Of a stretch of DNA of 64,000 nucleotides, positions 7,559-64,000 are shown one piece after another. The translations under genes and the position numbers were made by a program. Source of the stretch: Minisyncoccota bacterium. Its GTDB lineage: Bacteria > Patescibacteriota > Microgenomatia > UBA1400 > UBA12028. The notes beneath the pieces are model-generated. The model was not told the DNA's origin and did no database searches. It worked only from the letters and a program-made list of their open reading frames with translations. How positions within the stretch are numbered: position 1 is the first letter of the stretch; the number at the start of each line of letters is the position of its first letter. Location of the stretch: the NCBI GenBank assembly GCA_016211945.1, contig JACRHV010000006.1, positions 46,723 to 110,722 on the forward strand, given 5' to 3'.

Positions 7559-7561
7559 CTC

Positions 7562-28628: not shown

Positions 28629-28906
28629 GTATTTTTGGGGATAACGAGGGAAAACCTCTCTTCATATTGTGTATATGTGCATATCGCACGAGGAGATATC
28701 CACTTATACACATTTTCCGAGAGTTTTCCACAAACTTTTCCACATTTTTACGGCAGTAATCAACACGAAGGTATCCCACACTAGTCGGTTCTCTCTCCAA
28801 AAGTTTTCCTCTTTTCCCCAACACTACTACATACTACTACTATCTTAAGATATATATTAGAGAAACAAACTTTGCTTTTTTTCTTTTTCCACATACAATA
28901 TCGACT
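28629..28906. other. candidate oriC segment (DnaA-box-like motifs + AT-rich unwinding element) between dnaA and dnaN
   Basis: 278-nt non-coding spacer with ATATCCACT, TTTTCCACA (x2), TATCCCACA-like motifs and AT-rich 'TCTTAAGATATATATTAGAG' near dnaN start. Confidence 0.5.
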
Positions 28907-31844: not shown

Positions 31845-31908
31845 AGCGTTTTTATCTTAACATAAAAATATAGATGCCTTTTTTCGCAACGAAGGACTAC
31901 ATCACTGC

Positions 31909-32793: not shown

Positions 32794-32807
32794 GATCGCG
32801 CCCGTAT

Positions 32808-33914: not shown

Positions 33915-34022
33915 GATTTTATTGTAGCAGGAAAACGAAGATATCCTTTCTACATAACAAAGAACTGTATTGCCTAAAAAAGAGCAACTTCGTTTTTTCT
34001 TCTCATGTCCAAATACAAAAAC

Positions 34023-38161: not shown

Positions 38162-38166
38162 GAAAA

Positions 38167-44465: not shown

Positions 44466-46154
44466 TTAACTCTTCTTTGTGGCGTCTTTCTTATCTGCGA
44501 AAGTTGTATCTCCAACTTTATTTGCAGCCCAATGACCGCCTTTTTTAAATTCTTCTTGGATAGGAACAAACGGGTCCGTTCCTGTTCCGCGAACAAAGTT
44601 TCCAGCGCTAATAAATGCACCTTTGCCAGCATCTGCAGCGGCACCAACTCCAACAGCCCCCTTCTTCAAAATATTCTCTCCAGAAACTCCGCCATATGGC
44701 AACTTTGTTGTATCTGTCCAGTCCAACCCATCCACCAACTTGCCACCCTTCCACCCTTTTTGCAAGTTGGCACTGATCTTTGGTATATACTGGTCGAATG
44801 GGCTCTTCGGATTCCCCAACATCTTGAGAGATATATCGATCGCTTCTGGCATGAGCATGAGGATGCCAATAGCAATGAGGCCTTGGATAGCACCAATGCC
44901 CTTAGAGTCAGCCCAAAATGTACTAATTTGTGGAGCTTGAAATCCCGCAGCCTGACTTGAGTCTGTACCATCAATCCATTTATATCCAACCCCCTTTGTT
45001 TCGCTTTGACCCCCTAAAACCATGGCGAGAAATATCATTGTGATAACAACGGGAAACGGTAGAAGTGTGGCAAAAAGACTGCGCAGCCACTCACTAAAAT
45101 CAAGTTTTCCGGTAAAAAGGTTTAACAAAAGTAATATTGGTGAAAAAATAACACTGATAATAAACTTGACATAACTCATGAGCAGTTTAAAAAATGTTTG
45201 TGTGACAGAGAAGAAAATAACAATGGCAAAAACAAGCTCTGCAATGATAGCACCCGAAACATTCGCAATTTTCCCAAGTCCTTGAAGATAAATATTGCTG
45301 TCTTTGCTGGAGAAAAACCCTTCAACAAGTTTCCCAACAGACAGTGCAGCTCCAGCCGTTGGATTTCCACTTCCTCCACCGAATATGAGTTGTAGTCCAT
45401 TTGAAAAAATATTGTTCGAAAGTGCAATTTTTTCAAGCGTAATTGGTTGTCCAAGTGGATCGGTAAGCGTTGGAGGAAGCAAATTTTGTAACTTAAAGAT
45501 GCCTATGATGAGATATATCATCAAATACATGATATCGATAAGAAAACCACTAATTGCAAACGAAAAAGTAATAGCAAGCGCGGTCCAGAGAAAATTTGGG
45601 ATAGCACTCGTTATGGTTACCGCTGTCTGTCCTCCCCATTTTTGCCGGAACATAATCATAAACCCGATGTACATAAATGCCAGAACAAAGAAGATATACG
45701 CAATGTCGCGAAATGCCTTCCATACTTGAAGAATAGGGCTCAAACTTTTAAACCCAATACCTTGTGCATACGCTTGAGGAACAAAAGGAGAATGTTCTAA
45801 AAGATCTGCAATCCAAACACCAGTATTTGCCGGAGGATGTGTGATCATGGCGGCCATCATATTTCCCATTTGTGGGACAACCCCCTGAATAACACTCTCT
45901 CCATCAGTCGAACGACCTCCAATAAGGATATCGGTCCACGAATGACTATTTCGCACCCAAGTTCCCAGATTATATGCCTCATTGTTAATATTACCCGTAT
46001 CTTGTGTGTGTTTGACCGCGTCATTAAATTCTTCATTGCTTGGGGTTACGAGCGATCTTCGCAAGTCTTCTGAAGGCCTTTCTGCAACAGCAAACACGGT
46101 ATGGGGAGTAAAAAAAAGCACAATGATCACAAGAAAAGAGAAAACGCGTTTCAT
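44466..46154 (-). CDS. VirB6/TrbL-like polytopic membrane protein with signal peptide and Gly-rich C-terminal tail
   Basis: start placed at 'MKRVFSFLVIIVLFFTPHTVFAVA' signal peptide; ~120-aa extracytoplasmic N-domain then at least 6 TM segments ('IAYIFFVLAFMYIGFMIMF', 'LWTALAITFSFAISGFLIDIMYLMIYLIIGIF' ...). Confidence 0.5.
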   Translation of the reverse strand: MKRVFSFLVIIVLFFTPHTVFAVAERPSEDLRRSLVTPSNEEFNDAVKHTQDTGNINNEAYNLGTWVRNSHSWTDILIGGRSTDGESVIQGVVPQMGNMMAAMITHPPANTGVWIADLLEHSPFVPQAYAQGIGFKSLSPILQVWKAFRDIAYIFFVLAFMYIGFMIMFRQKWGGQTAVTITSAIPNFLWTALAITFSFAISGFLIDIMYLMIYLIIGIFKLQNLLPPTLTDPLGQPITLEKIALSNNIFSNGLQLIFGGGSGNPTAGAALSVGKLVEGFFSSKDSNIYLQGLGKIANVSGAIIAELVFAIVIFFSVTQTFFKLLMSYVKFIISVIFSPILLLLNLFTGKLDFSEWLRSLFATLLPFPVVITMIFLAMVLGGQSETKGVGYKWIDGTDSSQAAGFQAPQISTFWADSKGIGAIQGLIAIGILMLMPEAIDISLKMLGNPKSPFDQYIPKISANLQKGWKGGKLVDGLDWTDTTKLPYGGVSGENILKKGAVGVGAAADAGKGAFISAGNFVRGTGTDPFVPIQEEFKKGGHWAANKVGDTTFADKKDATKKS

Positions 46155-46218
46155 GTCTTCGTATTGTACAGAACAATCGAGAGAACAACAAGCATTTTCC
46201 TGGTACAATACCAGAGAT

Positions 46219-49200
46219 ATGGTTCCTCGATTTTCTCTCTTTATTACCTCTGTTATTTCCATTTTTGTTTTTCTGGCATTTCCTTCCGGTATTCGAGCGG
46301 TAGAGTTGGGAACGCATGTTGCCCATTTTGATCGTGGAGCGGAGATCGGTGTTTTAGGCCTTATTCGAAGCAAGTTGAGCAAACAAGATGGATATCCCGT
46401 TACCATCAACATTGATCCGCAATGGTCAACAGCAGAGATCCAAGAACTTGCCGACAAGGCAGAAGGCTTTCGTGTTGCTCTTCGTATTATTAGCGTTTCA
46501 AGCAAAGCAACCCCAGAAGAAATGCAAACGCTTGTTCAACAACTCAATGGTGTGCGTTGGAAGACTACAGGAAAACCTGTTGTTGTGTTGGGAAACGAAC
46601 TGAATAACTTAGTAGATGAATGGAAAAGTATTGCTGTTTCAGTTGAGGCTGCGGGAGCTGCGTACACACCACTTCATGATGTGATATGGTCAGGGTCGCC
46701 AAAATTAGACATGGGAAGGTACGACCTTGCTGCTGCAACCATTGACCCATACCATCCGAACAACTGGAAACTTTTTGTGTCAGGGGCGGGGAGGGCATAT
46801 ACACAGCACAATACAATCTTTGTAGCAAACATCTATGAAAACAGTGCAGAGGACACAAAAAAACGGATTGAAGAAATCAAATCGGGAATTTCCGGAGTAC
46901 CGTCAAAAACAATACTCACAGAGTATGGACCAAAAGACCCCAAATCGCCGCTTGCTGAGTACATGCGGTTCTATAAAGAGAACGCTCCGCCATCCAATGT
47001 GGAATATGCGACCGCACTACTCGCTAATTATTGTAAGAAAGATAAGGCAGTTTTTGGATATTTCTACTATATAGAAGGAAAAGTGTACACGATTGATGGT
47101 GATGAGGTGGACCCACAAACCTGTCTCGGGGCAAAATCACTCACTGATGAATCAAAAACCCCAGATGATGAGGTAGACGGCATCTATGTCTACAAAGATA
47201 TCTATAAAAATGTGCTGTTAAATGGGGAAAAAGGAGGGAAGGAAAGTGCGTCAAGATACGTCATGATGTGTGCTCCGCAATTTTGGACAGACGCTGAGAT
47301 TCAAGACCAAGATAAAAAAATCTATTGGGAAAAACTTGGCGACAAGGCAAAAACACTCAGCGAGTACTGCACAAGTGAGATAGGATCAAATACGAACGAA
47401 CCAAACTGCGTATTCGATCCTGTCACTGCAAACTTTACTGTTATTAATGATAATCTTACGGTTCCGTTGTATAGGAAGGCGACCTTTAATGATAAAGGTC
47501 AGCAAATGGACAATAACAGGGCAGAAAGCATTGAGTCGTTTTTTGGAACGAACACAAAAGAGGGAAGAAAAACAGGGGATCCGCTTTTATATTCACCCAA
47601 CGTCAAACTTCTTTCAAAGGCGCAGTACTGCACTCAAACAGTTCGATACTTAAAGGCAATTGAGATGATGTGCCAAGAACCGCAAGCACAGCAATCAACA
47701 ACAGACAAAGAAATAGTGCCTAGGGGAAAATGCACATTGAACAATGAATTCGAGAACAGTCGAAAACAAAAAGTGCGCTATTTGGATATTCTCAAACAAG
47801 TAAAAGACAACGCGGCTGCTCAGGGGCTACAGACACCAGAAGACTATTGTGATCTTGTAGTAAAAAAACAAGACCCCAATCTCATGAAGGACCTTGCCCA
47901 AGTCCAACCGCTCACAAAAAATGCGTTTAAAATTGGATACCTTGTCTATTACAATACCGGGAGGTATAAAAAAGACTCAAATGATCCGGAAGACAAAGCC
48001 GCTTTTCAGGATAGCTCAGAATATTTCCACCCGGTCTACAGAACATTGCGCGATTACTATGCCAATGTGACATTCCAAGTAATTCCCTTCTTAGTTCCTG
48101 CAAATGTATTTAGCACCTCGTCACAGGAAGACGTTGTTGGAAATTCGTTCGCCTCGTTTGATAGTCCGTACACAACAGTATTTCAAACACTCATGCCGCA
48201 AGCAAAGATAAACCAATTGGCAGAAAGTGAACAAAAAAGAAGAGTGATGATTGAGTCTCAACTCGATCAACCATGGAATGCATTCAATGACGCTAGTCAG
48301 GAAAAACCGTACATTCAATGTCCTGTTTGCGATGACAGTTATAACAAGAGAGGATATGTTCCGTCGGTGGGGTCTTTAGCGGCAAACAAAACGTATCTCG
48401 CTTTTGCAAAAACGATATGGAGACGCATCAATGCGGGAATCTACACAAAAGAATTTGTGCAAAATTTGGATGTAAAACAGGGAAATGAACTCGTGGCCCA
48501 ACCTCCTGATATTTGGAATAGTTGCAATGTGGCGCCGGAACTCGTCCGCGGTGAGTCTGCGCAAGCACTCCATTCACAGGGTGGCATTTCCTTGATAAAG
48601 GATGGAAAAGAAACGTTGTGGGGGAAGGTGAAGCAGTCGGCGACAGAGATTACATCGCTCATCCGTGCTCCTAAGGGTACTCGGAGAGATCCGTATGAAT
48701 ATTACGTTCGGGGATATCTCCTTTTACCGCAAGAATACGGATATCTTCTCTCGACAGAACAGGATTTTCTGCGAGCGTTGATCCCGTACTCTGCACAAAA
48801 AAATATTTTAGAGACAGAGCAAAAGAAGAACGACTTTAACGCATTTGGTAATATCGCAGGACTTGATCCGTCTAAAGCAGACTATGATAAACAAGTTCCG
48901 CTATGGAATCGTTTTCTTCGCTTAAACGGCCAGGTTTTTGGACTAAACGATCTGACCGCAGACTCTACGGGAAAGCACGGCAAAGATGGGAATCCGGACA
49001 CATATTACACAGAATCTAAAGATGAATATGAAGCACGCGTCGCAAAAGCAAGACAAGATTGTGCAAATAGAGGGATTTTGCCAAGAGACTGCTCAATTCC
49101 GGAGCGGAAGAAAACAGAGATTACAGCAAAGCAAACATCACAAAATCCAGGATATAAAGAGGGAAAAACCGATTTTCGTCCCATCCTTCCGGGAGGATGG

Positions 49201-50028
49201 TTAGCGCGGGGCATCTTTGAGTTGATGGCACACATTACTTCGAGTAAAGGAAGTGCCAACTTTCAAGATAAATATTGTGGACTGGAAGACTATTTATTGG
49301 GGACAAACTGTGCGGGTGCGGGAAGTACAAGTTCGATCAAAAATACAACAACCTCATCTACAAAGGGAGATATCGCGTGTATAAATGTATGGGTTGATGA
49401 AGCAACGGCACAGGCACACGCACAAGACATTTTAGCAAGTCTTCCTTCACGCGCAGATTGGGGGAAATATTTTTCTGGTTATTTGAGTGATCCGGTAAGG
49501 CAGTGCAAGGATCCAACCACAAACCCAAGTCCGAGTGAATACGATAGCGTGGCAAAGCAATATCTCTTTGAGTCTGTTCCTGAATGCGGTGGAGTGTCGT
49601 GCTATTCGTATATTGTTCAGCGCACATTATCTGCAAAGACATCGGACGGTAAGGTTGTTGATCCCTACATCGCAATTTCTATTGCATTAAATGAAAATGG
49701 TGGACTAAAAACAGCGAGGAAAGATCGGATGAGTCAACATTTTGGAGTGGTGACTCCTATTACGGGTCACTCAAAAGAATGTCCGGAGGATAACGAGTAC
49801 ATGGGCAGAATTGATGAGAAACTCGACATCATGCTCCAAACGCTCATCGCAGGATATAAGGGAAAGGATACTTTGGGTGCAGATGGTGTTGCGGCATTAG
49901 AGCGATATAAATCGGGAAGTAATGCAAGACCGCTTGAAGATCAAACGTATAGTCAGAAAATGATACAACTTACACAGATCATCAGCGGTAACGCATACTC
50001 ACCACTGTGTACAGGGAAAACTCTTTAA
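46219..50028 (+). CDS. giant (1269-aa) secreted protein; N-terminal region with GH-A-like 'VVVLGNELNN' motif
   Basis: start placed at 'MVPRFSLFITSVISIFVFLAFPSGIRA' signal peptide (track ORF start at 45982 would overlap divergent gene); 30+ Cys; no repeats. Confidence 0.6.
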   Translation: MVPRFSLFITSVISIFVFLAFPSGIRAVELGTHVAHFDRGAEIGVLGLIRSKLSKQDGYPVTINIDPQWSTAEIQELADKAEGFRVALRIISVSSKATPEEMQTLVQQLNGVRWKTTGKPVVVLGNELNNLVDEWKSIAVSVEAAGAAYTPLHDVIWSGSPKLDMGRYDLAAATIDPYHPNNWKLFVSGAGRAYTQHNTIFVANIYENSAEDTKKRIEEIKSGISGVPSKTILTEYGPKDPKSPLAEYMRFYKENAPPSNVEYATALLANYCKKDKAVFGYFYYIEGKVYTIDGDEVDPQTCLGAKSLTDESKTPDDEVDGIYVYKDIYKNVLLNGEKGGKESASRYVMMCAPQFWTDAEIQDQDKKIYWEKLGDKAKTLSEYCTSEIGSNTNEPNCVFDPVTANFTVINDNLTVPLYRKATFNDKGQQMDNNRAESIESFFGTNTKEGRKTGDPLLYSPNVKLLSKAQYCTQTVRYLKAIEMMCQEPQAQQSTTDKEIVPRGKCTLNNEFENSRKQKVRYLDILKQVKDNAAAQGLQTPEDYCDLVVKKQDPNLMKDLAQVQPLTKNAFKIGYLVYYNTGRYKKDSNDPEDKAAFQDSSEYFHPVYRTLRDYYANVTFQVIPFLVPANVFSTSSQEDVVGNSFASFDSPYTTVFQTLMPQAKINQLAESEQKRRVMIESQLDQPWNAFNDASQEKPYIQCPVCDDSYNKRGYVPSVGSLAANKTYLAFAKTIWRRINAGIYTKEFVQNLDVKQGNELVAQPPDIWNSCNVAPELVRGESAQALHSQGGISLIKDGKETLWGKVKQSATEITSLIRAPKGTRRDPYEYYVRGYLLLPQEYGYLLSTEQDFLRALIPYSAQKNILETEQKKNDFNAFGNIAGLDPSKADYDKQVPLWNRFLRLNGQVFGLNDLTADSTGKHGKDGNPDTYYTESKDEYEARVAKARQDCANRGILPRDCSIPERKKTEITAKQTSQNPGYKEGKTDFRPILPGGWLARGIFELMAHITSSKGSANFQDKYCGLEDYLLGTNCAGAGSTSSIKNTTTSSTKGDIACINVWVDEATAQAHAQDILASLPSRADWGKYFSGYLSDPVRQCKDPTTNPSPSEYDSVAKQYLFESVPECGGVSCYSYIVQRTLSAKTSDGKVVDPYIAISIALNENGGLKTARKDRMSQHFGVVTPITGHSKECPEDNEYMGRIDEKLDIMLQTLIAGYKGKDTLGADGVAALERYKSGSNARPLEDQTYSQKMIQLTQIISGNAYSPLCTGKTL

Positions 50029-50030: not shown

Positions 50031-50468
50031 TTATTTATCCGGAAGCTCAATCTGAAATGTTTTTATCGATTCTACGCCGGTAAAACTGGAAATAAAGTTC
50101 AGTGCAATAAAGCCGGAAACGGATAACGCGATCCCAATAAAAGCTGCGGTGATTGTTTTTTGTCCCGTTTCGGTTCCTTTGGGATTTCCGCCGGAAGTTG
50201 AGTACAAAAGTGCTCCAACAATAAGCATAACAAATGAGGCAACTCCTACGGCAGTGACCGCAATGGCAAGGATGTTCGAAACAACGCACTCTATACCAAC
50301 AAGCGTTGCGACGTCTTGTTCATTTGTGCCCTTTCCGACACATTTTGGATTAATCGTTGTCCACTCAGAAGTACTCTGAGCGTATACAGGAGAGGTAGAG
50401 ATGGAAAAAGCAATGAGAAACGAAAAAAGAAGAAACATTGTTCGAGAAAAAATCGAGTGTTTTTGCAT
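50031..50468 (-). CDS. VirB2/TrbC-like two-TM pilin candidate, paralog 1 (own transcription unit)
   Basis: signal-like N-term, TM1 'AVGVASFVMLIVGALLY', loop 'STSGGNPKGTETGQKTITAAF', TM2 'IGIALSVSGFIALNFI'. Confidence 0.55.
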   Translation of the reverse strand: MQKHSIFSRTMFLLFSFLIAFSISTSPVYAQSTSEWTTINPKCVGKGTNEQDVATLVGIECVVSNILAIAVTAVGVASFVMLIVGALLYSTSGGNPKGTETGQKTITAAFIGIALSVSGFIALNFISSFTGVESIKTFQIELPDK

Positions 50469-50500
50469 AAAAGAATTGTATCACACCAGGGAAAGTAAAC

Positions 50501-50526
50501 AAAAAGCCCCGGTTCCCCGGGGCCTT
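50501..50526 (-). terminator. rho-independent terminator downstream of pilin-like paralog 2
   Basis: minus-strand RNA: GCCCCGG-GGAA-CCGGGGC followed by UUUUU. Confidence 0.6.
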
Positions 50527-50545
50527 AACTTCAATAAAAAAAAGA

Positions 50546-50884
50546 TTAATACCCTTTTGGAAGCGTTGCTCCAATATTGAAGACATCAACTCCAAAGAAG
50601 TACGCAACAACCTGCATCAATGCATATGACGCTGCAACAATCGCCAAACCAACAAGTGCGGCGGTAATTTTGTTTCGCGCATTCTCTGTTTTTCCTTTAT
50701 CTCCACCCGATGTAATCCACTCAACGCCACCGAGAACGAGATATGCGAAAACAAGAATAGCAGAAACCAACAACGCGACGTTCAAGACGCGCGAGAAAAG
50801 AAGACCGATGTCGGTGATCTTGAACCCATTCGATTGGGGATCAATCGTGATTGGTGGTTTTGCTTGTGCGAGTAGGGCGAGCAT
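50546..50884 (-). CDS. VirB2/TrbC-like two-TM pilin candidate, paralog 2
   Basis: 'AYLVLGGVEWITSGGDKGKTENARNKITAALVGLAIVAASYAL'. Confidence 0.55.
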   Translation of the reverse strand: MLALLAQAKPPITIDPQSNGFKITDIGLLFSRVLNVALLVSAILVFAYLVLGGVEWITSGGDKGKTENARNKITAALVGLAIVAASYALMQVVAYFFGVDVFNIGATLPKGY

Positions 50885-50933
50885 ATTTCCTCCTTTTGTC
50901 CTAGATGTATTCTATATGTTCTTTCTCTGTATA

Positions 50934-51251
50934 TCAAGGGTTTACTATTGTAATGTCGAGTCCAAAGAAATAGTTGATAATGCGGAAGATTGCAAAGACA
51001 CTCACCATCACAGCCAAACCAATGAGCCCTTGTGTAATCATCTGTTTTGCGTTATCTATTTTTCCTTTATCGCCACTTGCAATAATCCACATGAATCCAC
51101 CAAGAACCATGTATGCCAAAGCGGCAACTGAAGCAACGGCCAGAGCCAGCCCAGCATATCGTCCAATCAATGTTCCCAAGTCCAGTTGAACTTTTGGTCC
51201 CAAATTCGATCGGATATCAACTTTTTGCGCAAGTAGTATTGGTAACGTCAT
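50934..51251 (-). CDS. VirB2/TrbC-like two-TM pilin candidate, paralog 3
   Basis: 'AYMVLGGFMWIIASGDKGKIDNAKQMITQGLIGLAVMVSVFAI'. Confidence 0.55.
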   Translation of the reverse strand: MTLPILLAQKVDIRSNLGPKVQLDLGTLIGRYAGLALAVASVAALAYMVLGGFMWIIASGDKGKIDNAKQMITQGLIGLAVMVSVFAIFRIINYFFGLDITIVNP

Positions 51252-51260
51252 ACTATTCCT

Positions 51261-51830
51261 TTATTTACATCCTCCGCGTCCGTCCGGATTTACCCCAGAG
51301 TCGCATGGAGCGTTTCCCGCATTACAGTTACAGGTGTCGCTAATCCCAAATCCACACATACCCTGATTTTTTCCACCGCATGTATTACAAATATTTGGAT
51401 TATTGAGAGTAATTGGAGTTTTCCCCTGACAATACGGATTCGAAGACCCCGTTCCAGTAGAGGAGGTTCCGCCAAGATCTCCAGAGATGCGTGTGAAATC
51501 TGGTGCCAAGAGATCAATTCCAAGTGCGGTGCCAAAGAATGTACTGATGGCCGCGACTGAGAATAATACAGCCAATCCAATAAGACCCTGTGTGATTCTA
51601 TCTTTTGCTTGCTCGATTTTCCCCTTATCACCTCCCGCAGAAATCCAGGTCAACCCACCCATAATCATGTATGCAACAACCGCCAATCCACCAAGAACGA
51701 GGGAAGTTTGCCACAGAATTCCAATATATTTCCCCAAACCTGTACCAGCAACATCGGGATTAGCTGCGTTTTGCAGTCCTGCAGGGAGAGCGGGATTTGA
51801 GATGTCGGCCAACATTGTAGATAACGTCAT
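51261..51830 (-). CDS. VirB2/TrbC-like two-TM pilin candidate, paralog 4, with Cys-rich C-terminal extension
   Basis: 'AYMIMGGLTWISAGGDKGKIEQAKDRITQGLIGLAVLFSVAAI' then 60-aa tail with 10 Cys ('CNTCGGKNQGMCGFGISDTCNCNAGNAPCDSG'). Confidence 0.55.
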   Translation of the reverse strand: MTLSTMLADISNPALPAGLQNAANPDVAGTGLGKYIGILWQTSLVLGGLAVVAYMIMGGLTWISAGGDKGKIEQAKDRITQGLIGLAVLFSVAAISTFFGTALGIDLLAPDFTRISGDLGGTSSTGTGSSNPYCQGKTPITLNNPNICNTCGGKNQGMCGFGISDTCNCNAGNAPCDSGVNPDGRGGCK

Positions 51831-51831
51831 A

Positions 51832-52209
51832 TTATTGCCACAACCCTTCCAACATTTTTACGGGACTGAGAATACTGATTCCCAACACACCACCAACAAT
51901 ACTAATGATAAACTGAGCAAGAATGACAATAATGAGTCCGATCGCAGCGTTCGTCATTTGAGTTCGAGCAGCCTCAACCTTTCCTTTATCCCCACTGGCG
52001 GAAAGCCAAGCCAACCCACCGAAAACGAAGTACATAAGAAACATAAGTCCGCCAATAATAGTGAAGAAACCCAGAAAAACAGAGAGAAATTTTTCAATTG
52101 CTCCGCCCCCTGCCTCGGCTCCAGTTCCATCTGCTGGTCGGAAATACGGACTCGTTCCCTGGATTGTTCCTTGAAGAGGGTTTTGCGCAAGTAAAGAGAG
52201 TACGTTCAT
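51832..52209 (-). CDS. VirB2/TrbC-like two-TM pilin candidate, paralog 5
   Basis: 'MYFVFGGLAWLSASGDKGKVEAARTQMTNAAIGLIIVILAQFI'. Confidence 0.55.
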   Translation of the reverse strand: MNVLSLLAQNPLQGTIQGTSPYFRPADGTGAEAGGGAIEKFLSVFLGFFTIIGGLMFLMYFVFGGLAWLSASGDKGKVEAARTQMTNAAIGLIIVILAQFIISIVGGVLGISILSPVKMLEGLWQ

Positions 52210-52718
52210 CGCGTTCTTCCCCCGTTATTGTTCCGATCTCGTAGTGAATCAGGTAGCGCTTTGAGAATAGCGTCAATGTCTCCATTGGATGAGGAACCGG
52301 AGTTTCTTCCCGGACCCCCCTCTGGACCACCGCCAGATGAAGCAGGAGCTCCCGGGCCTTGAATAACAGGACTCACAAAAAAAGTAGCATCCTTGAAGAG
52401 GAGAAATCCAGTCAAAGCCATAAGGGCAGGGGCAAGAATCATAATGACCAAACCCCACAGACTCATGTTTAATTTACTCATGACTTTCTCATGTGCTTTT
52501 GCATCTCCTGCTGAAGTAAGATAGGTATATCCAGCCATGACAATGTTATACAGAGCAATGAGTCCCCCTACAATAATTGCCATTCTTAACAGATTTGTTG
52601 TGAGAGTAATAAGTCCACCACTAGCACCGTAATCTGCAATCGCAGCTGGCGGTGTTATTGTTCCAAAAAATGTTGAGTCTGCCATTATTCTTTTTCCTAC
52701 ATTACTACGGACCACCAT
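52206..52718 (-). CDS. VirB2/TrbC-like two-TM pilin candidate, paralog 6 (divergent loop, Gly/Ser/Asn-rich C-terminal extension)
   Basis: 'LYNIVMAGYTYLTSAGDAKAHEKVMSKLNMSLWGLVIMILAPAL' then 'PGAPASSGGGPEGGPGRNSGSSSNGD'; real start possibly the internal Met of 'MADSTFF'. Confidence 0.5.
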   Translation of the reverse strand: MVVRSNVGKRIMADSTFFGTITPPAAIADYGASGGLITLTTNLLRMAIIVGGLIALYNIVMAGYTYLTSAGDAKAHEKVMSKLNMSLWGLVIMILAPALMALTGFLLFKDATFFVSPVIQGPGAPASSGGGPEGGPGRNSGSSSNGDIDAILKALPDSLRDRNNNGGRTR

Positions 52719-53037
52719 TCAATATGGGCTGTCCTATGACAATTTGTACAACTTGGATGATCCAATAAGCAGAAAGGATGACCAAAAAACCAATGACTGC
52801 AGTTTGAATAGTCTGCATTCCTTTCTCTGTTCCCTTAGGATCTCCTCCTGACATAAGTATAGTAAGTCCGCCGCCAATGAGCAAGCCAAAAATGATAATT
52901 CCAGCAAACACATACATGTTTGGAAGAACAACTTTATTTAAAAAATCTGCTGGAGTAGCAAAGACGTCTGCAACGGAAGAGGAGCTGTTCAATTTATATT
53001 TCTCACCCAAATCAATAGCAATAAGCGTGCCATTCAT
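52705..53037 (-). CDS. VirB2/TrbC-like two-TM pilin candidate, paralog 7
   Basis: 'IFGLLIGGGLTILMSGGDPKGTEKGMQTIQTAVIGFLVILSAYWIIQVVQIV'. Confidence 0.55.
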   Translation of the reverse strand: MNGTLIAIDLGEKYKLNSSSSVADVFATPADFLNKVVLPNMYVFAGIIIFGLLIGGGLTILMSGGDPKGTEKGMQTIQTAVIGFLVILSAYWIIQVVQIVIGQPILNGGP

Positions 53038-53060
53038 GATGGAAGTATTGTATCACAGGT

Positions 53061-53459
53061 TTATTGAGGAGTTGCAGACGATGTTCCGGTTTTTTGTGTC
53101 GCACTTTCTGTCGCTGTGCTTTCTTTTTTTGGTGTTCCTGCTTCTGCTGTAACCGCAGTCTTCTTTAATCCCTTTTCATCTGTCTCGGTAATTTCTTTGA
53201 TAATAGGGAAAGTTGACAGAACTTCATCGGGATACAACTTTCTTTGTCTCAAGTCTTGAAGCGTTTTTATATCAAGTACGGGGGTAAGCGGTTGAACTTG
53301 TCGCTGAACTGTTGGCGGAATAGACGATTTGTGAAGAGAAAAATATATTGTCATTCCGATCCAAACTCCAACAGCAACCAAGGATACGACAAAAATCGTC
53401 AGGATAATCTGTCTTCTAAAAAGCGATTTGATGAATGGTTGTTCCTGTGCTGCGTTCAT
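53061..53459 (-). CDS. hypothetical single-pass membrane protein (Thr/Ser-rich C-terminus)
   Basis: TM 'IILTIFVVSLVAVGVWIGMTIYF'; co-oriented between PilO-like gene and pilin-like array. Confidence 0.45.
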   Translation of the reverse strand: MNAAQEQPFIKSLFRRQIILTIFVVSLVAVGVWIGMTIYFSLHKSSIPPTVQRQVQPLTPVLDIKTLQDLRQRKLYPDEVLSTFPIIKEITETDEKGLKKTAVTAEAGTPKKESTATESATQKTGTSSATPQ

Positions 53460-54133
53460 GGTGTTTTTTCATCCTTCTTTGCAGAACTTCCTGGAAGTTG
53501 TATTGGAGTGCCATAGTATGCAACGCGAAAAGCAATAGTTGTAATGAGTGAGCTGGTTTTCTCAAATTCGTCTCGTTTCGCATTCATTACAAGCGAATCA
53601 ACCGAAACATACCGATCCATTGCCAACATCTCGGCAATAAACGCGCGGACGAGTGGGTATGGGGCCTTCAGATTGACGCTGATCAAATAACTTGTGAGCT
53701 GAGGAGCGGTGCTCGTTGCTTCTTTTGGAACTTGTGTGACCTGCAGCGAGTTAATGAGTACGGTATGTGCCGTTGCGACATACTCAAGACGTCGCATGAA
53801 TCCATCAAAATTTGGTGTGTTCGGTATTGCTTTATGAAGTAAGCTTACTTCATTCTTTAACGTCGGAAGCTCACTACTTAATGTAGAAAGTGAGGCTATT
53901 TTTTTTGAAAGTGCGTCGCTCGTTTTTCTCCGGTCCTCGATATCATGGAGCAGTTGTGACATGGTGAGCAACGTTGGACGAATGGCAAAAAGCGCGAGAA
54001 GGATGACCGCGAGAAGTGTTGCAATAAGCTCTGTGGAGACCTTTGCAATCGGTTTTTGATAAAACTGTTGCAGCTGCCTCACCGTTTGGTTGCGTGGTGC
54101 GGAGGGTATTGAAGAAAACGGTGAGTGTATCAT
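53456..54133 (-). CDS. PilO-like type IV pilus/secretion inner-membrane assembly protein
   Basis: 225 aa; short cytoplasmic N-term, TM 'LIATLLAVILLALFAI', coiled coil, then ~120-aa C-domain; overlaps PilN-like gene by 4 nt. Confidence 0.45.
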   Translation of the reverse strand: MIHSPFSSIPSAPRNQTVRQLQQFYQKPIAKVSTELIATLLAVILLALFAIRPTLLTMSQLLHDIEDRRKTSDALSKKIASLSTLSSELPTLKNEVSLLHKAIPNTPNFDGFMRRLEYVATAHTVLINSLQVTQVPKEATSTAPQLTSYLISVNLKAPYPLVRAFIAEMLAMDRYVSVDSLVMNAKRDEFEKTSSLITTIAFRVAYYGTPIQLPGSSAKKDEKTP

Positions 54134-54705
54134 GACGTTTTCCCTCCCGGTATGGGTTGTATTTGCACGCGAATAGAAAACTCTAGGCCGGCACCACCCT
54201 GCGTATTGCTTTTAATTTGATCGACATACAATGCTTTTGTTTGCGGTTGTTTTTGAAGTCTGCGCACAAGAACAGCCAACGATTCAGGAGTAAGTGCGTT
54301 CCCAGTAATCTGCACTTCCTGTGCGCGAATCTGAACAAGTGTATAGACCACATCTTTAGGAATGCTTTTTGCGAGAACATCAAGCGCACTCAACGGATCC
54401 TGTGTCCCTTTTTGTTGTTGGAGGAACTCCGTTTTTTTCTGGATGAGACGTACATCCGACTCTAATGTTCCGTACGAATCAACAATGTAGGACTTTTGTG
54501 TAATGGATGAGTTCAGATCAGTAAGATCGCGGTCGAGTTTAAAACGAGAGGCGAAACTGATAATGACAACAATTTCAGTAAAAATAACAAGGTAGCGACC
54601 AACAGTGGAGGCCCACGCCATAATGCGCCCAACGGGAGTCTCAAAAAAAGGATCCTGAGGAAGCAAATTTATCGACAGATGGCGGGGCTGGACGCTGGTC
54701 TGCAT
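54130..54705 (-). CDS. PilN-like assembly protein (INLLP motif)
   Basis: 191 aa; N-terminal 'LSINLLPQDPFF' (PilN INLLP PilM-binding motif) followed by TM 'YLVIFTEIVVIISFA' and periplasmic domain. Confidence 0.55.
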   Translation of the reverse strand: MQTSVQPRHLSINLLPQDPFFETPVGRIMAWASTVGRYLVIFTEIVVIISFASRFKLDRDLTDLNSSITQKSYIVDSYGTLESDVRLIQKKTEFLQQQKGTQDPLSALDVLAKSIPKDVVYTLVQIRAQEVQITGNALTPESLAVLVRRLQKQPQTKALYVDQIKSNTQGGAGLEFSIRVQIQPIPGGKTS

Positions 54706-54775: not shown

Positions 54776-55309
54776 ATGAAATATAATTATTCTGAGGCAG
54801 ACGTTTTACTTCTTCAATCTGGTGATGTTCGTGCTGTAGAACGATGGTTTCGTACGTTTCAAAAACCACTGTTCGCCTTCATTCTTACTCGAGTATCTGA
54901 TCTGCATGATGCAGAAGAATTGTGTCAAAATACTTTTCTCTCTTGTCTTGAAACACTCCCGTTGTATAGAGGAACATCATCGCTTTTTACTTGGATGTGT
55001 GCGGTGGCAAAGCATGAGATTGCGGATTACTTTAGGAAAAAATATGCCAAACGCGCACTACAACTCATTCCATTTGGAGAAACATTGTTGCCCGAACATC
55101 TTCATACTATGCACGATGTTTCGGATACGGTTCGTAGGGTACTCAAGAAACTAACGCAAAAGGAGCGAGAACTTCTTTTTCTGAAATACATAGACAACGC
55201 AAGTGTAAAATCAATCGCGCATTCATTGGGGATGAGTATGAAAAGTATAGAGTCGATGTTATATAGGGCAAGAAAAGCGTTTCAAAGGATTTATGCAGAA
55301 CACATCTAG
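54776..55309 (+). CDS. RNA polymerase sigma factor, ECF (sigma-70 regions 2 and 4)
   Basis: region 2 'LSCLETLPLYRG...FTWMCAVAKHEIADYFRK'; region 4 HTH 'ASVKSIAHSLGMSMKSIESMLYRARKAF'. Confidence 0.8.
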   Translation: MKYNYSEADVLLLQSGDVRAVERWFRTFQKPLFAFILTRVSDLHDAEELCQNTFLSCLETLPLYRGTSSLFTWMCAVAKHEIADYFRKKYAKRALQLIPFGETLLPEHLHTMHDVSDTVRRVLKKLTQKERELLFLKYIDNASVKSIAHSLGMSMKSIESMLYRARKAFQRIYAEHI

Positions 55310-59030: not shown

Positions 59031-59672
59031 CTAGAAAAGCGCTGTTCGAGTTTTTGGATCGGTTTTTCCACGGGGGTGAATAAGGTTTGGACTTTTTGCA
59101 ATCTGCGCCCCCTCAAGAGGAAATCGTGTGCAAAGAAGCATGACTGATTGTCCTGCTAATTTTGTTATAGGGGAGAGAGCAAAGAGAGGGATGGAATGTT
59201 CTTCATCAAAACCGGGTAATGTAATCTGCGCAACGTCTCTAGAGGTTGTTACAACATCACTTGGCGAAGGAAATGGGACTTGATTATTGAGGAAAACAGC
59301 AAACAAACCACTTTGTTTATGGACACGTGAGTATTCGGTGTCATCAAGATGTTGAATGTTCACCACAATACGCGCTTGGTGAGACATCGCTTTTATAAGA
59401 GTTGCGTTGGTTAACACACTAAATGTTACCTCAACACTCTTTCCTCGCTCTGGGAGAATTATTGCGCAGTGTATAGGTGTTGTTGGAACAAGCGGCTCTT
59501 TTGGTGATAATAAAGCTCTTTGAAGGCCTAGTAGAGTCTTGACGTCTGGAATCGCCGCGACTAATTTTTCGATTGGGAAAAAAACATGTGTAAATCGACC
59601 AAGATTCTCGCGAAGTACTTGTTCTGAAATTGTTACAGTATCTCCTGGTCGATCAAACCATGGTCTTGTCAT
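59031..59672 (-). CDS. hypothetical protein
   Basis: 213-aa ORF co-oriented with giant gene upstream; no motif. Confidence 0.45.
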   Translation of the reverse strand: MTRPWFDRPGDTVTISEQVLRENLGRFTHVFFPIEKLVAAIPDVKTLLGLQRALLSPKEPLVPTTPIHCAIILPERGKSVEVTFSVLTNATLIKAMSHQARIVVNIQHLDDTEYSRVHKQSGLFAVFLNNQVPFPSPSDVVTTSRDVAQITLPGFDEEHSIPLFALSPITKLAGQSVMLLCTRFPLEGAQIAKSPNLIHPRGKTDPKTRTALF

Positions 59673-59678
59673 GTGTTC

Positions 59679-62600
59679 CTATAGTACAGCTCCAACGATC
59701 TCGCGAACAAGAGCCTCTGCTTCGCGGGCAATGAAATCATGTTTAAGCAACATCTCTTTTCCACCGGTAATATCAGTTTGTGCTAACCTTAGTGTTTCAA
59801 TGTCAGCTGATAGTTGACGCAAACGCTCAATAAGGATATTCGCATATTGAATCGAAAGATTGTGTGCAGGATCGTCTGGAGACGTTTCTTTTTTCTCTTT
59901 GTCTTCTCGTATCGCCTTTGCAAGTTCACCAATCATGCGCTTTCTCATGTCCACACTAATCTGTTTTTGTGTTGTCGATAAATTTGCCGCGTCTTGAAGA
60001 AAAGTTGAGGTCAATGCAACTCCTTTATGTTCATTCAGAGCAGAAAGTTGAAGGGCGATATCAATAGGAATTTGTGCAGTAGGAGTGTGAGCTTGGCCCC
60101 TCAACGCCTCAACATCGAGAACAGTAAAAGAAACATTATGCAGAATGTTTTGAGCAATTTGTTGCGAAAATTCTGGAGAAATTTTAGAGTTGGGGGGATC
60201 AAGATAATGCAATGTTCCAGATTCTCCAAACCATTCGATTGCAAGATGTCCAACACTATCAAGGATTCCCGTACCGTCATTGTCGGTATGGACGCTCCGT
60301 ACTCTACATGGAATTCCAGCGTATCGGAGAAGCTCCAAGAGTGGGACAGCGCCAACCTGACAGTTTCCCTTGCCGGACTTTATAAGCGAAATGATACGAT
60401 CTGCGCCTTCAGGTTGAGGATCATAGAGGCGTCTTTTTTTCCAAAAGAGATAGATGATTGTGACTATTTGGTCCCGACTGAGCGCTGAGCCGCGACTATG
60501 AATGAGTTCAAGAACCCCTTTGGTCTCATCATCGAGCTCTTCATATTTGGTTATCGGAGTTTTCAACAACAGTTCATATGATTCTTTTCTATCTTCCAGT
60601 TGATGTTCAATAAATTCATTATTGTCCGCATTTGCCTCTTTTTTCTTGAGGTATATGCGTGTGCCTTTGGGAAGAATCGGTAACCTGTTTGCTTTTGCAG
60701 AATCCCCGCTACCCTGGAGATCTGGTGGAAATATGATGACGTAATGATTGTGAATAGCGTCAAACATGAGTGTGGGAACACTTGCAGAGTCAGAGCTTTT
60801 CCAAGGGAAGGAAATGTAAAGAATGGAGTACTCACCACTTACCGGTAAAATAATCTCACGATTTGTAGGAATGACATCTTTTTCTGTTTCTACAAGACCG
60901 TCGTCTTGCACATCCAAATATCCATTTTCATCTTTTGGATTATACGGAAGCCATCCTTGGAATCCAACAAAAGTTGCCGGAACAGGAACAATAGCTTCGC
61001 TTTCTAGAAGGATTCCATCAGTTGTCTCTTTTGCCGTATCGTAACAATTTGTTGGGTAGTAGGATGGTGCGTTTGTTCTCCAGTGGGCCTTCCACACCGT
61101 ATTCCCAAAACTCACACGCTCTCTCCCCTCTTCTTTGGCGATACTTGCATTGTCATAAGATGCTTGGTCAACAAGAAACGGCATGCTACTGTGTGCAAAA
61201 GCAGACTCGGTAAACAAAGCTTGAAGAAGTGGTCCTCTCCGTCCTACCCGACGGGACGTGATCCATTCGTTTGAACCGGTGAGATATGTACCTCCCGGCC
61301 CACTCATACGTTCTCGCCAGGGGAGTCTTGCCAAGATATCTGAAGATAATGATCTTTGGATTTGTTCTGCCTCTTTTTTTCTTCTCTCACTTTCTTTTAT
61401 GAATTCATCCAACTTCTCTTTCGCTCTATCTAAATCACGCAGTGCGACTTGACCCTTATCTGCCTGTTCACGCAAGTTTGTGAGAATAAGTTCTAAAGAA
61501 TCAGCCTCGGTCTTTCTTTTTGACCAATCTGGATTAATAGATTGTGTTTTCTCATCAAGTTTCCCAAGAATTCTCACAAGTTTTTCAACATTTCCTCGGA
61601 TAACAAGTTTACATTCTACGTGTGGTTTATCACGGTCTTCTTTCCTGTATTCTCGAGGAAAGAATCCGTAAGAATAACTTGCAGTTCCATATGAAAGAAA
61701 CGGTTGGTTATCATGGACACCAAACTCGGTACACCACTCATTTGCCCACAGCTGCGTTGAAAAACCTAGAGACTTCATCGACTGCATAAAAGAGAGAAAC
61801 TTGATCGTGCTGTTATCTTCTACTTTTTTACCATGATCAAAAGACCGTTGAAGGGATTGATGTGGGCCTTCGATAGGAACACTTTTCATGGTTATCTCTA
61901 AACGGCCATCGTTTGTGATGTAGTATGAAAGCCCTGTTTTTTCGAATGAAAGAGTGGTTAGCATGCAGTCAAGTACCATATCTTCTGGAGGCCTTTTTTC
62001 ATCCTCTCTCAGGGCGTGTTGTGGGATTTTAATCAGTCGAAGAAAGCCTTCATTTGATTTGATTGTTTGCCCGTTTTTTTTGAGTTCACTCTCAACCAAC
62101 GATTCAATGGGCAACACTTTTAGTGTGCTGCGGAGATACTCAACGAGAGGTCCTTTTGGAAAAAGAGGACACATGCAATCTTTTCCTGAGAGAAATTGAT
62201 AGGAATGAATTGCGTCAGCATTGTACGCAAAATGTCGTTCTGCTCGTGGAAAAACTTCGTTAAATGCATAAATTATTGTGTCTATCACTTGAGGCGAGAG
62301 AGCTTTATACTTTTCAAACAAGGGAGAAAATTCTGGATATCTTTGCTCATCATCCGTAGAGGTGATCCCATCAGAAGGGGCGTACTCTATATACGCCCGA
62401 AATATTTTTGCCCAAACTTTTGAATCACGACAAGAAGCAATACTTGCCCGAATCATGTCTGGAATAGGTCCTGATACTGCCGTACTATTAGATACTCGAT
62501 TTACCGTTCCAAACGTTTCTGGTCCCACGCTTGCAATATTGTATGAAAAACAAAAAAGCTTCATATCGCGTAAAGCCTGCGGAATCATGTGTGTTCCGCG

Positions 62601-63665: not shown

Positions 63666-63692
63666 GCATTTACAATACCAGTTTTTTCTCTA

Positions 63693-64000
63693 TCAGAGTA
63701 TCTGGATTCCGAAGATGATCTGCACAATTTGAATGACCCAGTACGAAACAAATAAAAGAATAAATCCAATAGCTGCCGAAGTAATTTTTTGTTTTCCAGA
63801 CTCTTGCGATTTTGGTTCTGTAGCCCCAAACAACATCTCAAAACCACCAACGATAATCATCACAAAAAGAATAATTCCACTTGCGGTGTAAAGGTAGGGA
63901 AGGAGAGCGGTGAGGATTGCACCAAAAGTGATTACATTACTACTTGTCAAACCTCCTCCCAAGTTGATACCAATTGCATCATCAATATTCTTCCGAATTT
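63693..64000 (-). CDS. VirB2/TrbC-like two-TM pilin candidate, paralog 8 (5' end beyond window)
   Basis: 'IILFVMIIVGGFEMLFGATEPKSQESGKQKITSAAIGFILLFVSYWVIQIVQII'; C-terminus nearly identical in pattern to paralog 7 ('SAYWIIQVVQIV'); reading frame stays open to the window edge. Confidence 0.45.
   Translation of the reverse strand, partial: IRKNIDDAIGINLGGGLTSSNVITFGAILTALLPYLYTASGIILFVMIIVGGFEMLFGATEPKSQESGKQKITSAAIGFILLFVSYWVIQIVQIIFGIQIL

Follow-up and report, generated by a model that had tools for sequence, protein, structure and literature searches.

The window analysed here, a stretch of 64,000 nucleotides, carries seven back-to-back minus-strand genes for small membrane proteins, designated pilin types A to G (50031-53037), and an eighth, type H, from 63693 to the window end (Table 1). 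The open reading frames were found at the coordinates and on the strand given by the initial annotation, with gaps of -14 to +77 nt between adjacent array genes. The eighth copy is also real, although the window ends within it, with the frame open to base 63998. The full type H orthologue of a close relative (L085) comprises 145 aa with a signal peptide, and the partner of type H in relatives is a ninth pilin (type I), a fusion with a large N-terminal Cys-rich domain.

Table 1. Coordinates of the pilin array and of the surrounding features; dN/dS was estimated against a relative.
Feature	Position	Strand	Description	dN/dS
dnaA and dnaN	27171-30007
Core T4SS operon	29982-39978	-	Next to dnaN; PF19044, PF12846, PF03135, PF12666, PF01551; also encodes a 330-aa single-TM protein and a 603-aa protein
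VirB4	29982-31844	-	Core operon
TrsD/TraC-like	31909-32793	-	Core operon; NF041427 (TrsD)
PrgI/VirB3-like	32808-33914	-	Core operon
M23 peptidase protein	34991-38161	-	Core operon; 1056 aa
Divergent VirB6-like protein	44466-46154	-	562 aa, polytopic; signal peptide and ~6 TM segments
Secreted protein	46219-50028	+	1269 aa; signal peptide; convergent on the array, 2-nt gap	0.039
Pilin type G	50031-50468	-	145 aa; full Sec-type signal peptide; PF18895 E=0.002	0.076
Extended -10-like element	50475-50485	-	TGTGATACAAT; 6 nt before pilin G ATG
Intrinsic-terminator hairpin and T-run	50503-50526	-	Directly after pilin F; 10-bp stem, 7 G-C pairs
Pilin type F	50546-50884	-	112 aa, candidate major subunit; PF18895 27.3 bits	0.024
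Promoter-like site	50909-50937	-	Upstream of pilin F; TTGATA-17-TAGAAT (10/12 consensus matches), then ribosome-binding site AAAGGAGG
Pilin type E	50934-51251	-	105 aa; PF18895 E=2.7e-4	0.033
Pilin type D	51261-51830	-	189 aa; PF18895 30.4 bits	0.036
Pilin type C	51832-52209	-	125 aa; PF18895 39.1 bits	0.023
Pilin type B	52206-52718	-	170 aa; Gly/Ser-rich C-terminal tail; PF18895 E=9.2e-5	0.069
Pilin type A	52705-53037	-	110 aa, first gene of the array; two hydrophobic segments; PF18895 E=5.1e-5	0.037
Extended -10-like element	53047-53057	-	TGTGATACAAT; 9 nt before pilin A ATG
p132	53061-53459	-	132-aa single-TM protein; directly upstream of the array
pilO	53456-54133	-	PF04350 E=2.8e-7
pilN	54130-54705	-	PF05137 E=3.4e-12
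Pilin type H (eighth copy)	63693-64000	-	5' end beyond window end; PF18895 32.8 bits

In the Pfam search, all eight proteins matched PF18895 (T4SS_pilin), with E-values from 8e-10 to 2e-3; type C scored highest, and four exceeded the curated gathering cut-off of 26.6 bits. The same family was matched by 46 of 46 homologues and paralogues. Only one other family recurred across the copies in NCBIfam, NF045849; for seven of the eight it was the top match or the sole one (E 6e-6 to 4e-3), at scores of 17-26 bits that all fall under its 40-bit cut-off. Local pairwise alignments put the identity between paralogues at 17-47%; in the multiple alignment, identity to the first sequence was 17-26%. The eight reading frames are not chance, as shown by the PF18895 matches, the 853 homologues of type F and the low dN/dS of all of them. 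Additionally, the type IV prepilin signal G↓F-T-L-I-E was found in none of the eight, and their assignment as T4SS-type pilin candidates, not type IV pilins, is supported, as had been proposed.

Two Kyte-Doolittle hydrophobic segments flank a short charged loop in each protein; the loop is roughly [SA][GA][GT][DNE]-x-K-x2-[ED]-x6-[ILMT][TQN]. The loop motif first described, (S/A)GGD(K/P)(G/K)xExA(K/R)xxIT, approximates this pattern fairly, but it fits exactly only in types D-F. The expected two-helix hairpin was predicted by both hydropathy and AlphaFold2; the AF2 model of type F has helices at residues 25-58 and 63-97, joined by a 4-residue turn, with a core pLDDT of 85-95. Type G harbors a third, N-terminal hydrophobic segment, and the C-terminal tail of type D spans ~80 aa with 10 cysteines; the orthologues of L002 and L008 have a different tail, and that of L010 has none. 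The leader of type G ends in PVYA↓Q and that of type H in PVFA↓Q. The leaders of types A-F have only 5-9 residues, which counts against the explanation favored below, where the N-termini would cross the membrane.

The proposed match to VirB2/TrbC-type pilins stands as far as the T4SS pilin family and the T4SS context are concerned, but it was overstated as homology. The TrbC profile PF04956 matched none of the eight pilins and was reached by only one of 46 relatives, at 26.4 bits against a cut-off of 27.9; hhalign against a VirB2/TrbC alignment gave a probability of 2.5%, and fold searches returned generic helical hairpins only. Neither the profile nor the fold comparisons could demonstrate direct homology to VirB2/TrbC. 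The likeness to VirB2 (Ti plasmid), TrbC (RP4) and TraA (F) comprises two transmembrane helices with a short basic loop that is predicted to lie in the cytoplasm, an association with genes for VirB3, VirB4 and VirB6 homologues, and, in types G and H, a leader ending in Ala↓Gln (PAxAQ in VirB2; PMC4074166). In contrast, sequence and profile similarity to these pilins is not significant, each of them is encoded by one gene instead of many paralogues, and their leaders have 36-50 residues, far from the 5-9 of most array copies. The host here is also monoderm, without an outer-membrane core complex and without VirB5. The pilin-like conjugal transfer proteins Mbov_0395/MMCAP2_0565 of Mycoplasma ICEs (NF045849) are likewise small two-TM proteins of a wall-less/monoderm T4SS, although they are encoded by a single gene and not by an array.

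The core T4SS operon lies next to dnaN, with VirB4 18 kb from the array, and a 562-aa membrane protein is encoded ~4 kb from the array. This protein had no Pfam or NCBIfam match. When its AF2 model was submitted to Foldseek against the PDB, each of the top eight matches was a chain of the TrwJ/VirB5-TrwI/VirB6 stalk complex of R388 (best E=5e-3, probability 1.0; rank 9, E=1.7), and on this modeled fold we newly recognize it as a divergent VirB6-like protein. Linkage to T4SS genes recurs in distant genomes: the orthologous A-F array of L083 (Woesebacteria) is divergently adjacent to a VirB4-TraC-PrgI operon, and in L082 the distance from PrgI and TraC to the array is 9 kb. The 1269-aa secreted protein gave no family match in the profile search; in L002, L084, and L085 there is also a large convergent gene after the array. 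The 18 kb between virB4 and the array count against the explanation that we prefer, as does the location of the array right after pilN and pilO, two genes for type IV pilus components.

Type F stands out in conservation and in expression signals. Identity among its orthologues is 79-89%, against just 41-64% for PilO in the same comparison, its core is 86-99% identical, and 853 database homologues with 55-90% identity occur across Microgenomatia. Comparable -10 elements and AGGAGG sites precede F in L002, L083, L084, and L085. The terminator hairpin after F has a folding energy of -21.1 kcal/mol (z = -3.0), and the corresponding position in L002, L082, L083, L084, and L085 also has a GC hairpin with a T-run, though of other sequence. 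We regard type F as the likely major subunit because of this conservation, far above that of the other copies, and its own promoter-like site, strong Shine-Dalgarno sequence and conserved terminator. The promoter-like site is a consensus match only, and such matches are no commoner in the region than in shuffled sequence, which weighs against the preferred explanation. The extended -10-like element has exactly two copies in the window, before A and before G. Upstream of A, the genomes L002, L008, L010, L083, and L085 have a TGnTACAAT element at a distance of 6-9 nt, and the element before G is kept in L002, L008, and L085. One abundant conserved subunit with strong expression signals beside fixed minor paralogues resembles type IV pili and type II pseudopili by analogy only, as fold and assembly machine are unrelated and the array pilins have neither the class III signal peptide nor its G↓FxxxE.

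Taken together, we consider that A-H and the ninth gene just past the window probably form the VirB2-like pilin set (PF18895) of a chromosomal, monoderm-type T4SS in the ultrasmall genome of a Pacebacteria/Microgenomatia bacterium. Each pilin would sit in the cytoplasmic membrane as a helical hairpin, with the Lys/Arg-rich loop in the cytoplasm and both termini outward. The VirB4/VirB3/VirB6-type machine, encoded 4-20 kb away, would extract the subunits and polymerise a T4SS-associated filament or stalk, in which type F would be the abundant structural subunit. T4SS filaments have, to our knowledge, never been observed in Patescibacteria, which counts against this explanation.

The same family and context evidence would equally suit pilins that stay in or near the membrane as T4SS components without an extended pilus, for instance lining or gating the channel with VirB6; we rate this as the less likely course, though a serious one. 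Pili are normally absent from monoderm T4SSs (PMC12102498, PMC12857230), and VirB2 mutants that are T-pilus-minus yet virulence-plus are known (PMC4074166); in Gram-negative systems, VirB2 is likewise needed for transfer in pilus-minus "uncoupling" mutants. Nine distinct paralogues in a fixed stoichiometric set would also be no less expected of a defined complex than of a polymer. However, the separate, strong expression signals of F are as expected of a bulk polymer subunit, and the outward tails, one of them Cys-rich, as well as the Cys-rich domain of type I are easier to explain by surface display.

The orthology bears on a second alternative, in which the array would supply interchangeable major pilins for antigenic or host-range variation under the diversifying selection that the initial annotation raised. 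In four genomes, position-by-position best matches gave orthologues 48-89% identical (B 59-69%, C 69-77%, E 48-61%, G 52-63%), well apart from the paralogues. The best match of type A was always the first array gene in L002, L008, L010, L083, and L084. The A-to-G order is also kept in L083 and L084 and largely in L082, whose first two genes could not be typed. Each of the seven positions has a 1:1 orthologue in distant Microgenomatia (Pace-, Woese-, and Collierbacteria-type genomes), and the arrays are colinear. Purifying selection is strong on all eight genes, with dN/dS of 0.02-0.08 at an unsaturated dS of 0.44-1.07, the same as in pilN and pilO. Because every copy shows such low values, the diversifying-selection idea is not supported, and the 1:1 orthology and colinearity in distant genomes mark the array as an old fixed set, not a fast-turnover repertoire. 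The variability of the flanks was itself partly borne out: drift is confined to the tails, with orthologue identities of 47% in the N-tail and 27% in the C-tail (19-23% in that of type B) against 73% in the core. This faster tail divergence, the low identity between paralogues and the Cys-rich type D tail that is gained, lost or replaced between species speak for a repertoire, which was tentatively proposed in a 2025 survey by analogy with Bartonella and Anaplasma (PMC12102498). We find it improbable nonetheless, since across the compared genomes there is no recent duplication, loss or gene conversion, and copy F is nearly invariant. The virB2 families of Bartonella, Anaplasma, and Rickettsia likewise provide multiple divergent copies per T4SS; in those diderm pathogens they are read as antigenic or host-interaction variation, whereas the copies here were fixed long ago, are colinear and evolve under purifying selection.

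The genes upstream suggest a third possibility, namely that the PilN-PilO-p132 module helps to assemble the VirB2-like pilins, as a hybrid of a type IV alignment platform and a conjugative-type pilin. The module lies on the same strand, with just 23 nt from p132 to pilin A; no pilM, pilB, pilC or type IV pilin was present among the scanned ORFs of the window; and the adjacency is kept in six genomes, L002, L008, L010, L084, and L085 among them, with PilO identity down to 41% where measured. However, L082 and L083 have no pilN-pilO near their arrays, which sit with T4SS genes. From 74 PilO-anchored loci of species-representative genomes, 72 had no pilin within 10 kb and only two had one, with an HMM that detects every pilin of distant arrays at E≤1e-14. 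The pilN-pilO genes upstream are a clade-specific neighbourhood. Furthermore, the conserved extended -10 element between p132 and pilin A gives the array its own putative promoter, and PilN retains the INLLP motif, which binds PilM in type IV pilus systems. We thus hold the hybrid to be quite improbable.

That the proteins are unrelated small two-TM proteins (holins, bacteriocin immunity proteins or generic membrane peptides) under a misleading Pfam name is highly improbable: two-helix hairpins are structurally generic, four of the eight fall below the Pfam cut-off and homology to experimentally characterised pilins was not demonstrated by profile comparison, but a PHROG search gave no match, hence no holin or other phage family, the array has no phage or bacteriocin context in the window, the only other recurring NCBIfam family is the Mycoplasma one, a family member comes just below the TrbC/VirB2 cut-off, and the genes are repeatedly linked to VirB4, PrgI, and TraC in distant genomes.

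The tandem arrangement has already been published for these bacteria (PMC10633639, PMC12102498, PMC12857230). For Patescibacteria, 441 arrays with 2-11 pilins each have been reported, and they are especially common in Microgenomatia (PMC12102498); in Southlakia epibionticum a series of predicted pilins within the T4SS cluster is essential (PMC10633639); the present locus is thus an instance of a described arrangement. It fits the arrays of Quinonero-Coronel et al. 2025 (PMC12102498), with tandem PF18895 genes of ~25% paralogue identity and a monoderm-type VirB4 near dnaA/dnaN without a relaxase, except that the array here follows pilN-pilO. That study presents counts, together with the identity within arrays, and suggests versatility in host range; our analysis adds positional orthology, colinearity, purifying selection, and one distinctly conserved copy with separate predicted expression. 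S. epibionticum ML1 (Wang et al. 2023, PMC10633639; reviewed in PMC12857230) likewise has several VirB2-like pilins of similar structure and divergent sequence, and a Gram-positive-like T4SS without a recognisable coupling protein or relaxase. It belongs to the Saccharimonadia and has six copies inside the T4SS cluster, essential by Tn-seq, in contrast to the 7+2 copies described here from the sequence of a Microgenomatia genome, where VirB6 is encoded ~4 kb and VirB4 18 kb away from the array.

In the explanation that we prefer, a T4SS-associated pilin set with F as its main subunit, types A-E and G-I would be low-abundance minor subunits with fixed, non-redundant roles in initiation, at the tip, in adhesion or in anchoring, and their variable outward-facing tails would bear any lineage-specific contact surfaces.

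The region from 50031 to 53037 comprises seven contiguous minus-strand open reading frames (ORFs) of 105-189 aa, designated pilins A to G from the array end closest to pilO, where neighbours overlap by up to 14 nt or are separated by up to 77 nt. An eighth copy, pilin H, starts at 63693, and the window ends within its open reading frame; its orthologue in the closest relative harboring the whole locus (L085) has 145 aa and a signal peptide. Hydropathy analysis resulted in two strongly hydrophobic segments with a short charged loop between them in every pilin from A to H, which confirms the tandem array of genes with two transmembrane (TM) segments described by the initial annotation. The loop approximates SGGDKGKxExA(K/R)xxIT in D, E, and F, a looser version of it occurs in A, B, G, and H, and the array paralogues are only 17-47% identical in local pairwise alignments. 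In the AlphaFold2 model of pilin F, based on a 46-sequence alignment, helices 25-58 and 63-97 are joined by a four-residue SGGD turn, with a core pLDDT of 85-95.

Coordinates of the pilin genes and of the other features discussed (window positions unless a related locus is named)
Feature	Position	Strand	Remark
Pilin A	52705-53037	-	array end closest to pilO
Pilin B	52206-52718	-
Pilin C	51832-52209	-
Pilin D	51261-51830	-
Pilin E	50934-51251	-
Pilin F	50546-50884	-	ORF in array
Pilin G	50031-50468	-	opposite array end
Pilin H	63693 to window end		reading frame open
Pilin I (in relatives)	beyond >64000; L085:565-1650, L002:667-1545		adjoins H; also in L008 and L010
Short leaders of F, E, C	50884-50866, 51251-51225, 52209-52183	-	also in orthologues
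pilN (PF05137), pilO (PF04350), 132-aa single-TM protein	53061-54705	-	directly upstream of array, same strand
ECF-type sigma factor	54776-55309	+	divergent from pilN-pilO; synteny conserved
dnaA/dnaN and adjoining T4SS operon	27171-39978	- (T4SS genes)	adjoins dnaN directly
VirB4	29982-31844	-	T4SS operon member
562-aa VirB6-like candidate	44466-46154	-	signal peptide, about 6 TM segments
1269-aa secreted protein	46219-50028	+	converges on pilin G, 2-nt gap; conserved neighbour
YidC/Oxa1-family insertases	12199-13035, 25545-26336	-	two genes
213-aa and 1328-aa proteins	59034-63682	-	between uppS and pilin H
PKD-domain protein (461 aa), then sortase (219 aa)	6173-8221	+

PF18895 (T4SS_pilin) was the top Pfam match for all eight pilins, so the earlier assignment to a pilin family was essentially right. 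Against the gathering score of 26.6 bits, C (39.1), H (32.8), D (30.4), and F (27.3) were above the cutoff, whereas A (23.7), B (22.9), E (21.4), and G (18.6) were below it, with E-values of 5e-5 to 2e-3. The family was also matched by all 46 paralogues and homologues, and a search with pilin F gave 853 homologues (E<=1e-3), the majority annotated as PF18895, in Pace-, Woese-, and Collierbacteria and other Microgenomates. Seven of the eight pilins additionally matched NF045849, the NCBIfam model of a Mycoplasma ICE pilin-like protein (Mbov_0395), at 16.9-25.8 bits, under its 40-bit equivalog cutoff, which suggests remote similarity only.

The relation to classical VirB2/TrbC pilins was proposed by the initial annotation; the predicted architecture is similar, but profile similarity was not found. 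TrbC/VirB2 pilins have a long signal peptide cut at a conserved A-x-A↓Q (the arrow marks cleavage), followed by N-terminal modification or cyclisation. The pilins described here resemble VirB2 in a predicted leader ending in A↓Q (degenerate in A, B, and D), two predicted TM helices, and a basic loop, which by the positive-inside rule would be cytoplasmic. None of the eight matched PF04956 (TrbC/VirB2) at E<=1, and the best score among the 46 relatives, 26.4 bits for one protein against a cutoff of 27.9, is the only sequence bridge between the two families. An hhalign comparison of the CPR pilin alignment with seven VirB2/TrbC proteins (Agrobacterium VirB2, verified against annotated plasmid genes, and six more) gave a probability of 2.5% over ten columns only, at the Ala↓Gln leader-cleavage site, and a profile search of PDB sequences with the pilin family resulted in zero matches. 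A link by descent could not be demonstrated from these profiles.

Type IV pilins and T2SS pseudopilins have only one hydrophobic helix, at the N-terminus, and a class III signal peptide bearing G↓(F/M)xxxE. A regex scan found this prepilin motif in none of the eight pilins, each of which has two hydrophobic helices instead, in agreement with the earlier view that they are not type IV pilins. An ORF at 44466-46505 containing the string GVALLE was considered as type IV pilin-like and rejected, due to the string lying upstream of the real start. The initial annotation had named holins among the matches that would speak against pilins; a holin or phage origin was rejected, with no PHROG match at E<=0.01 for any of the eight.

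The window is chromosomal and covers the replication origin region (yidC, jag-like, dnaA, dnaN), and one of its proteins has a 100% identical match in a 'Candidatus Pacebacteria bacterium' MAG. The T4SS operon encodes VirB4, a TrsD/TraC-like protein, a PrgI/VirB3-like protein, a single-TM protein, a 1056-aa M23 peptidase, and a 603-aa protein; neither a coupling protein nor a relaxase was seen among the window ORFs scanned. This origin-adjacent placement is the one described for Patescibacteria (PMC12102498). In that survey, an array consists of at least two pilin genes in tandem or one gene apart with low paralogue identity, in a genome with a Patescibacteria-type VirB4 and pilins within about 20 coding sequences (PMC12102498); here, seven contiguous genes share 17-47% identity, and VirB4 lies about ten genes from pilin G. 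In the Woesebacteria locus L083, a VirB4-TraC-PrgI-347-707-607 operon divergently adjoins a six-gene pilin array, and on L082, a contig of Collierbacteria type, PrgI/TraC and a seven-gene array are 9 kb apart. Therefore, the physical link between array and T4SS recurs across the class.

The 562-aa protein matched no HMM family in Pfam or NCBIfam. When its AlphaFold2 model (mean pLDDT 69) was compared with the PDB using Foldseek, the top eight matches were all chains of the R388 stalk complex (TrwJ/VirB5-TrwI/VirB6), with E-values of 5e-3 to 0.29 and probabilities of 0.75-1.0, separated by a clear gap from the ninth (E=1.7); their TM-scores were low (0.32-0.41). VirB6 was described as 'scarce' in Microgenomatia in the 2025 survey (PMC12102498), and on the basis of this model, the 562-aa protein offers a candidate for a divergent VirB6 of the Microgenomatia T4SS.

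We compared the array with those of related loci. The best match of each window pilin was the pilin at the equivalent array position among the window, L002, L008, and L010, with orthologues 48-89% identical versus 17-47% for paralogues. Array typing recovered the A-to-F/G order also in L083 and L084, and the order C-D-(E/F-like)-F-G can be made out in L082, whose first two array genes were not typeable. The initial annotation had proposed diversifying selection and a dN/dS comparison to check it. Against L085 (amino acid identity 89-98%, dS 0.44-1.07), dN/dS was 0.023-0.076 in eight of eight pilins, which indicates purifying selection throughout and does not support the proposal. The three more distant orthologue sets were set aside in favor of L085 due to saturated dS (>1 or infinite), which gave only upper bounds of <=0.31. 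Neighbouring genes had similar values against L085: 0.026 for pilN, 0.040 for pilO, and 0.039 for the gene of the 1269-aa protein, which is likewise under purifying selection, has no detectable domains, and has a large convergent counterpart at the same position in several relatives.

Neither diversifying selection on whole genes nor recent duplication or gene conversion was evident from the orthologue and dN/dS comparisons. Pooled orthologue identity was highest in the cores (73%), lower in the N-tails (47%), and lowest in the C-tails (27%); other species lack the Cys-rich tail of pilin D or have a different one in its place, and L083 has a Cys-rich tail on E instead. A slow lineage-specific change of outward-facing tails is possible. 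The pilins form an ancient, ordered, and individually conserved ensemble, probably of one dominant and several specialised subunits, which points to a defined multi-subunit structure and not to an antigenic-variation repertoire.

The candidate for the dominant subunit is pilin F. Its orthologues are 79-89% identical where PilO is only 41-64% identical, and its core is 86-99% identical between orthologues. The gene is preceded by a promoter-like TTGATA-17-TAGAAT and a ribosome-binding site, AAAGGAGG, and followed by a 10-bp GC-rich hairpin with a T-run (-21.1 kcal/mol, z = -3.0). A hairpin with a T-run occupies the same post-F position in five relatives with a differing sequence, which speaks for a conserved terminator. 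Matches to the promoter consensus were not enriched relative to shuffled sequence; hence, the F promoter is called mainly from its position and conservation. From the conservation of F and its own expression signals, we therefore propose F as the bulk subunit and the remaining pilins as minor subunits. Elsewhere in the array, TGTGATACAAT lies 6-9 nt before the ATG of both A and G, its only two exact copies in the 64 kb. The TGnTACAAT element is kept before A and G in relatives, and its placement suggests extended -10 promoters yielding leaderless or near-leaderless mRNAs.

The signal peptides are normal in G, H, and the ninth pilin, I, whereas the leaders of A to F have only 5-9 residues, followed by the same (L/Y)A↓Q site that closes the full signal peptides. 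Pilin F, for example, starts with MLALLA↓Q, pilin E with MTLPILLA↓Q, and pilin C with MNVLSLLA↓Q. Pilins C, E, F, G, and H and most orthologues carry the A↓Q site, whereas A, B, and D of this genome have a degenerate form. The leaders of 120 F-type homologues fall into two length classes, 6-9 and 20-26 residues. Longer unannotated signal peptides for A to F were ruled out by in-frame stop codons 9-27 nt upstream of the starts. In VirB2, the PAxAQ leader site is required for processing and cyclisation (PMC4074166); the (L/Y)A↓Q site parallels this motif, and the G-type pilins read PVYAQ, PVFAQ, or PAHAQ. The window also encodes two YidC/Oxa1-family insertases, which may have a bearing on Sec-independent insertion of the short-leader pilins.

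The pilN-pilO-array neighbourhood is kept in L002, L008, L010, L084, and L085, and no pilM, pilB, pilC, or type IV pilin gene was found near pilN-pilO among the window ORFs scanned. A PilO-anchored scan of species-representative genomes, with a pilin HMM that gives E<=1e-14 for every pilin in the distant L082 and L083 arrays, found a pilin within 10 kb in 2 of 74 loci, even at E<=10, which ruled out pilN-pilO as a general partner of pilin arrays. In most Microgenomatia, the pilN-pilO-small-protein triplet occupies another site, such as the one behind rpsT/murJ. PilN has retained INLLP, the PilM-binding motif of type IV pilus systems, and the array has a promoter-like element of its own between the 132-aa protein gene and pilin A. 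We interpret the adjacency as a rearrangement specific to this clade, and a functional link to the pilins is quite improbable. In such a scenario, orphan PilN-PilO and the 132-aa protein would have been recruited to VirB2-like pilins in this Pacebacteria clade, so that a type IV pilus (T4P)-type platform would help assemble a conjugative-type, ordered heteropolymeric filament of nine fixed paralogues; we give this very little credence. To our knowledge, no T4P/conjugative hybrid pilus system has been described, and the recruitment, if true, would be a hybrid of two pilus worlds.

Further genes were noted in the window and in relatives. The type I pilin adjoining H in relatives combines a signal peptide with a cysteine-rich domain of 200-270 aa and, at the C-terminus, a pilin module; it is possibly an adhesin-pilin fusion or a tip subunit. 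The genes of the 213-aa protein and the 1328-aa protein, the latter with a transglutaminase-core domain, are absent from L085 (about 84% nucleotide identity), as a 4.65-kb strain-level insertion or deletion. The PKD-domain surface protein and the sortase are likely a sortase-substrate pair.

Patescibacteria represent a large share of bacterial diversity and spend their lives attached to other microbial cells. S. epibionticum is the only species tested so far, and there the T4SS is essential, including a series of predicted pilins in its cluster (Wang et al. 2023, PMC10633639). A survey reported 441 arrays, each with 2-11 VirB2-like pilins, across 383 Patescibacteria assemblies, with a mean identity of 25%, especially common in Microgenomatia and Saccharimonadia, and speculated on host-range versatility (Quinonero-Coronel et al. 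2025, PMC12102498); a 2025 review highlighted the possibility of a pilus in monoderm Patescibacteria (PMC12857230). The locus is thus not a new kind of system, and the comparative picture narrows the hypotheses by adding positional orthology with purifying selection, a candidate major subunit with expression signals, a VirB6-like neighbour, and truncated leaders. Type F is singled out as a target for antibodies, cryo-EM, and heterologous expression, and the truncated leaders are relevant to how the pilins of Patescibacteria are processed.
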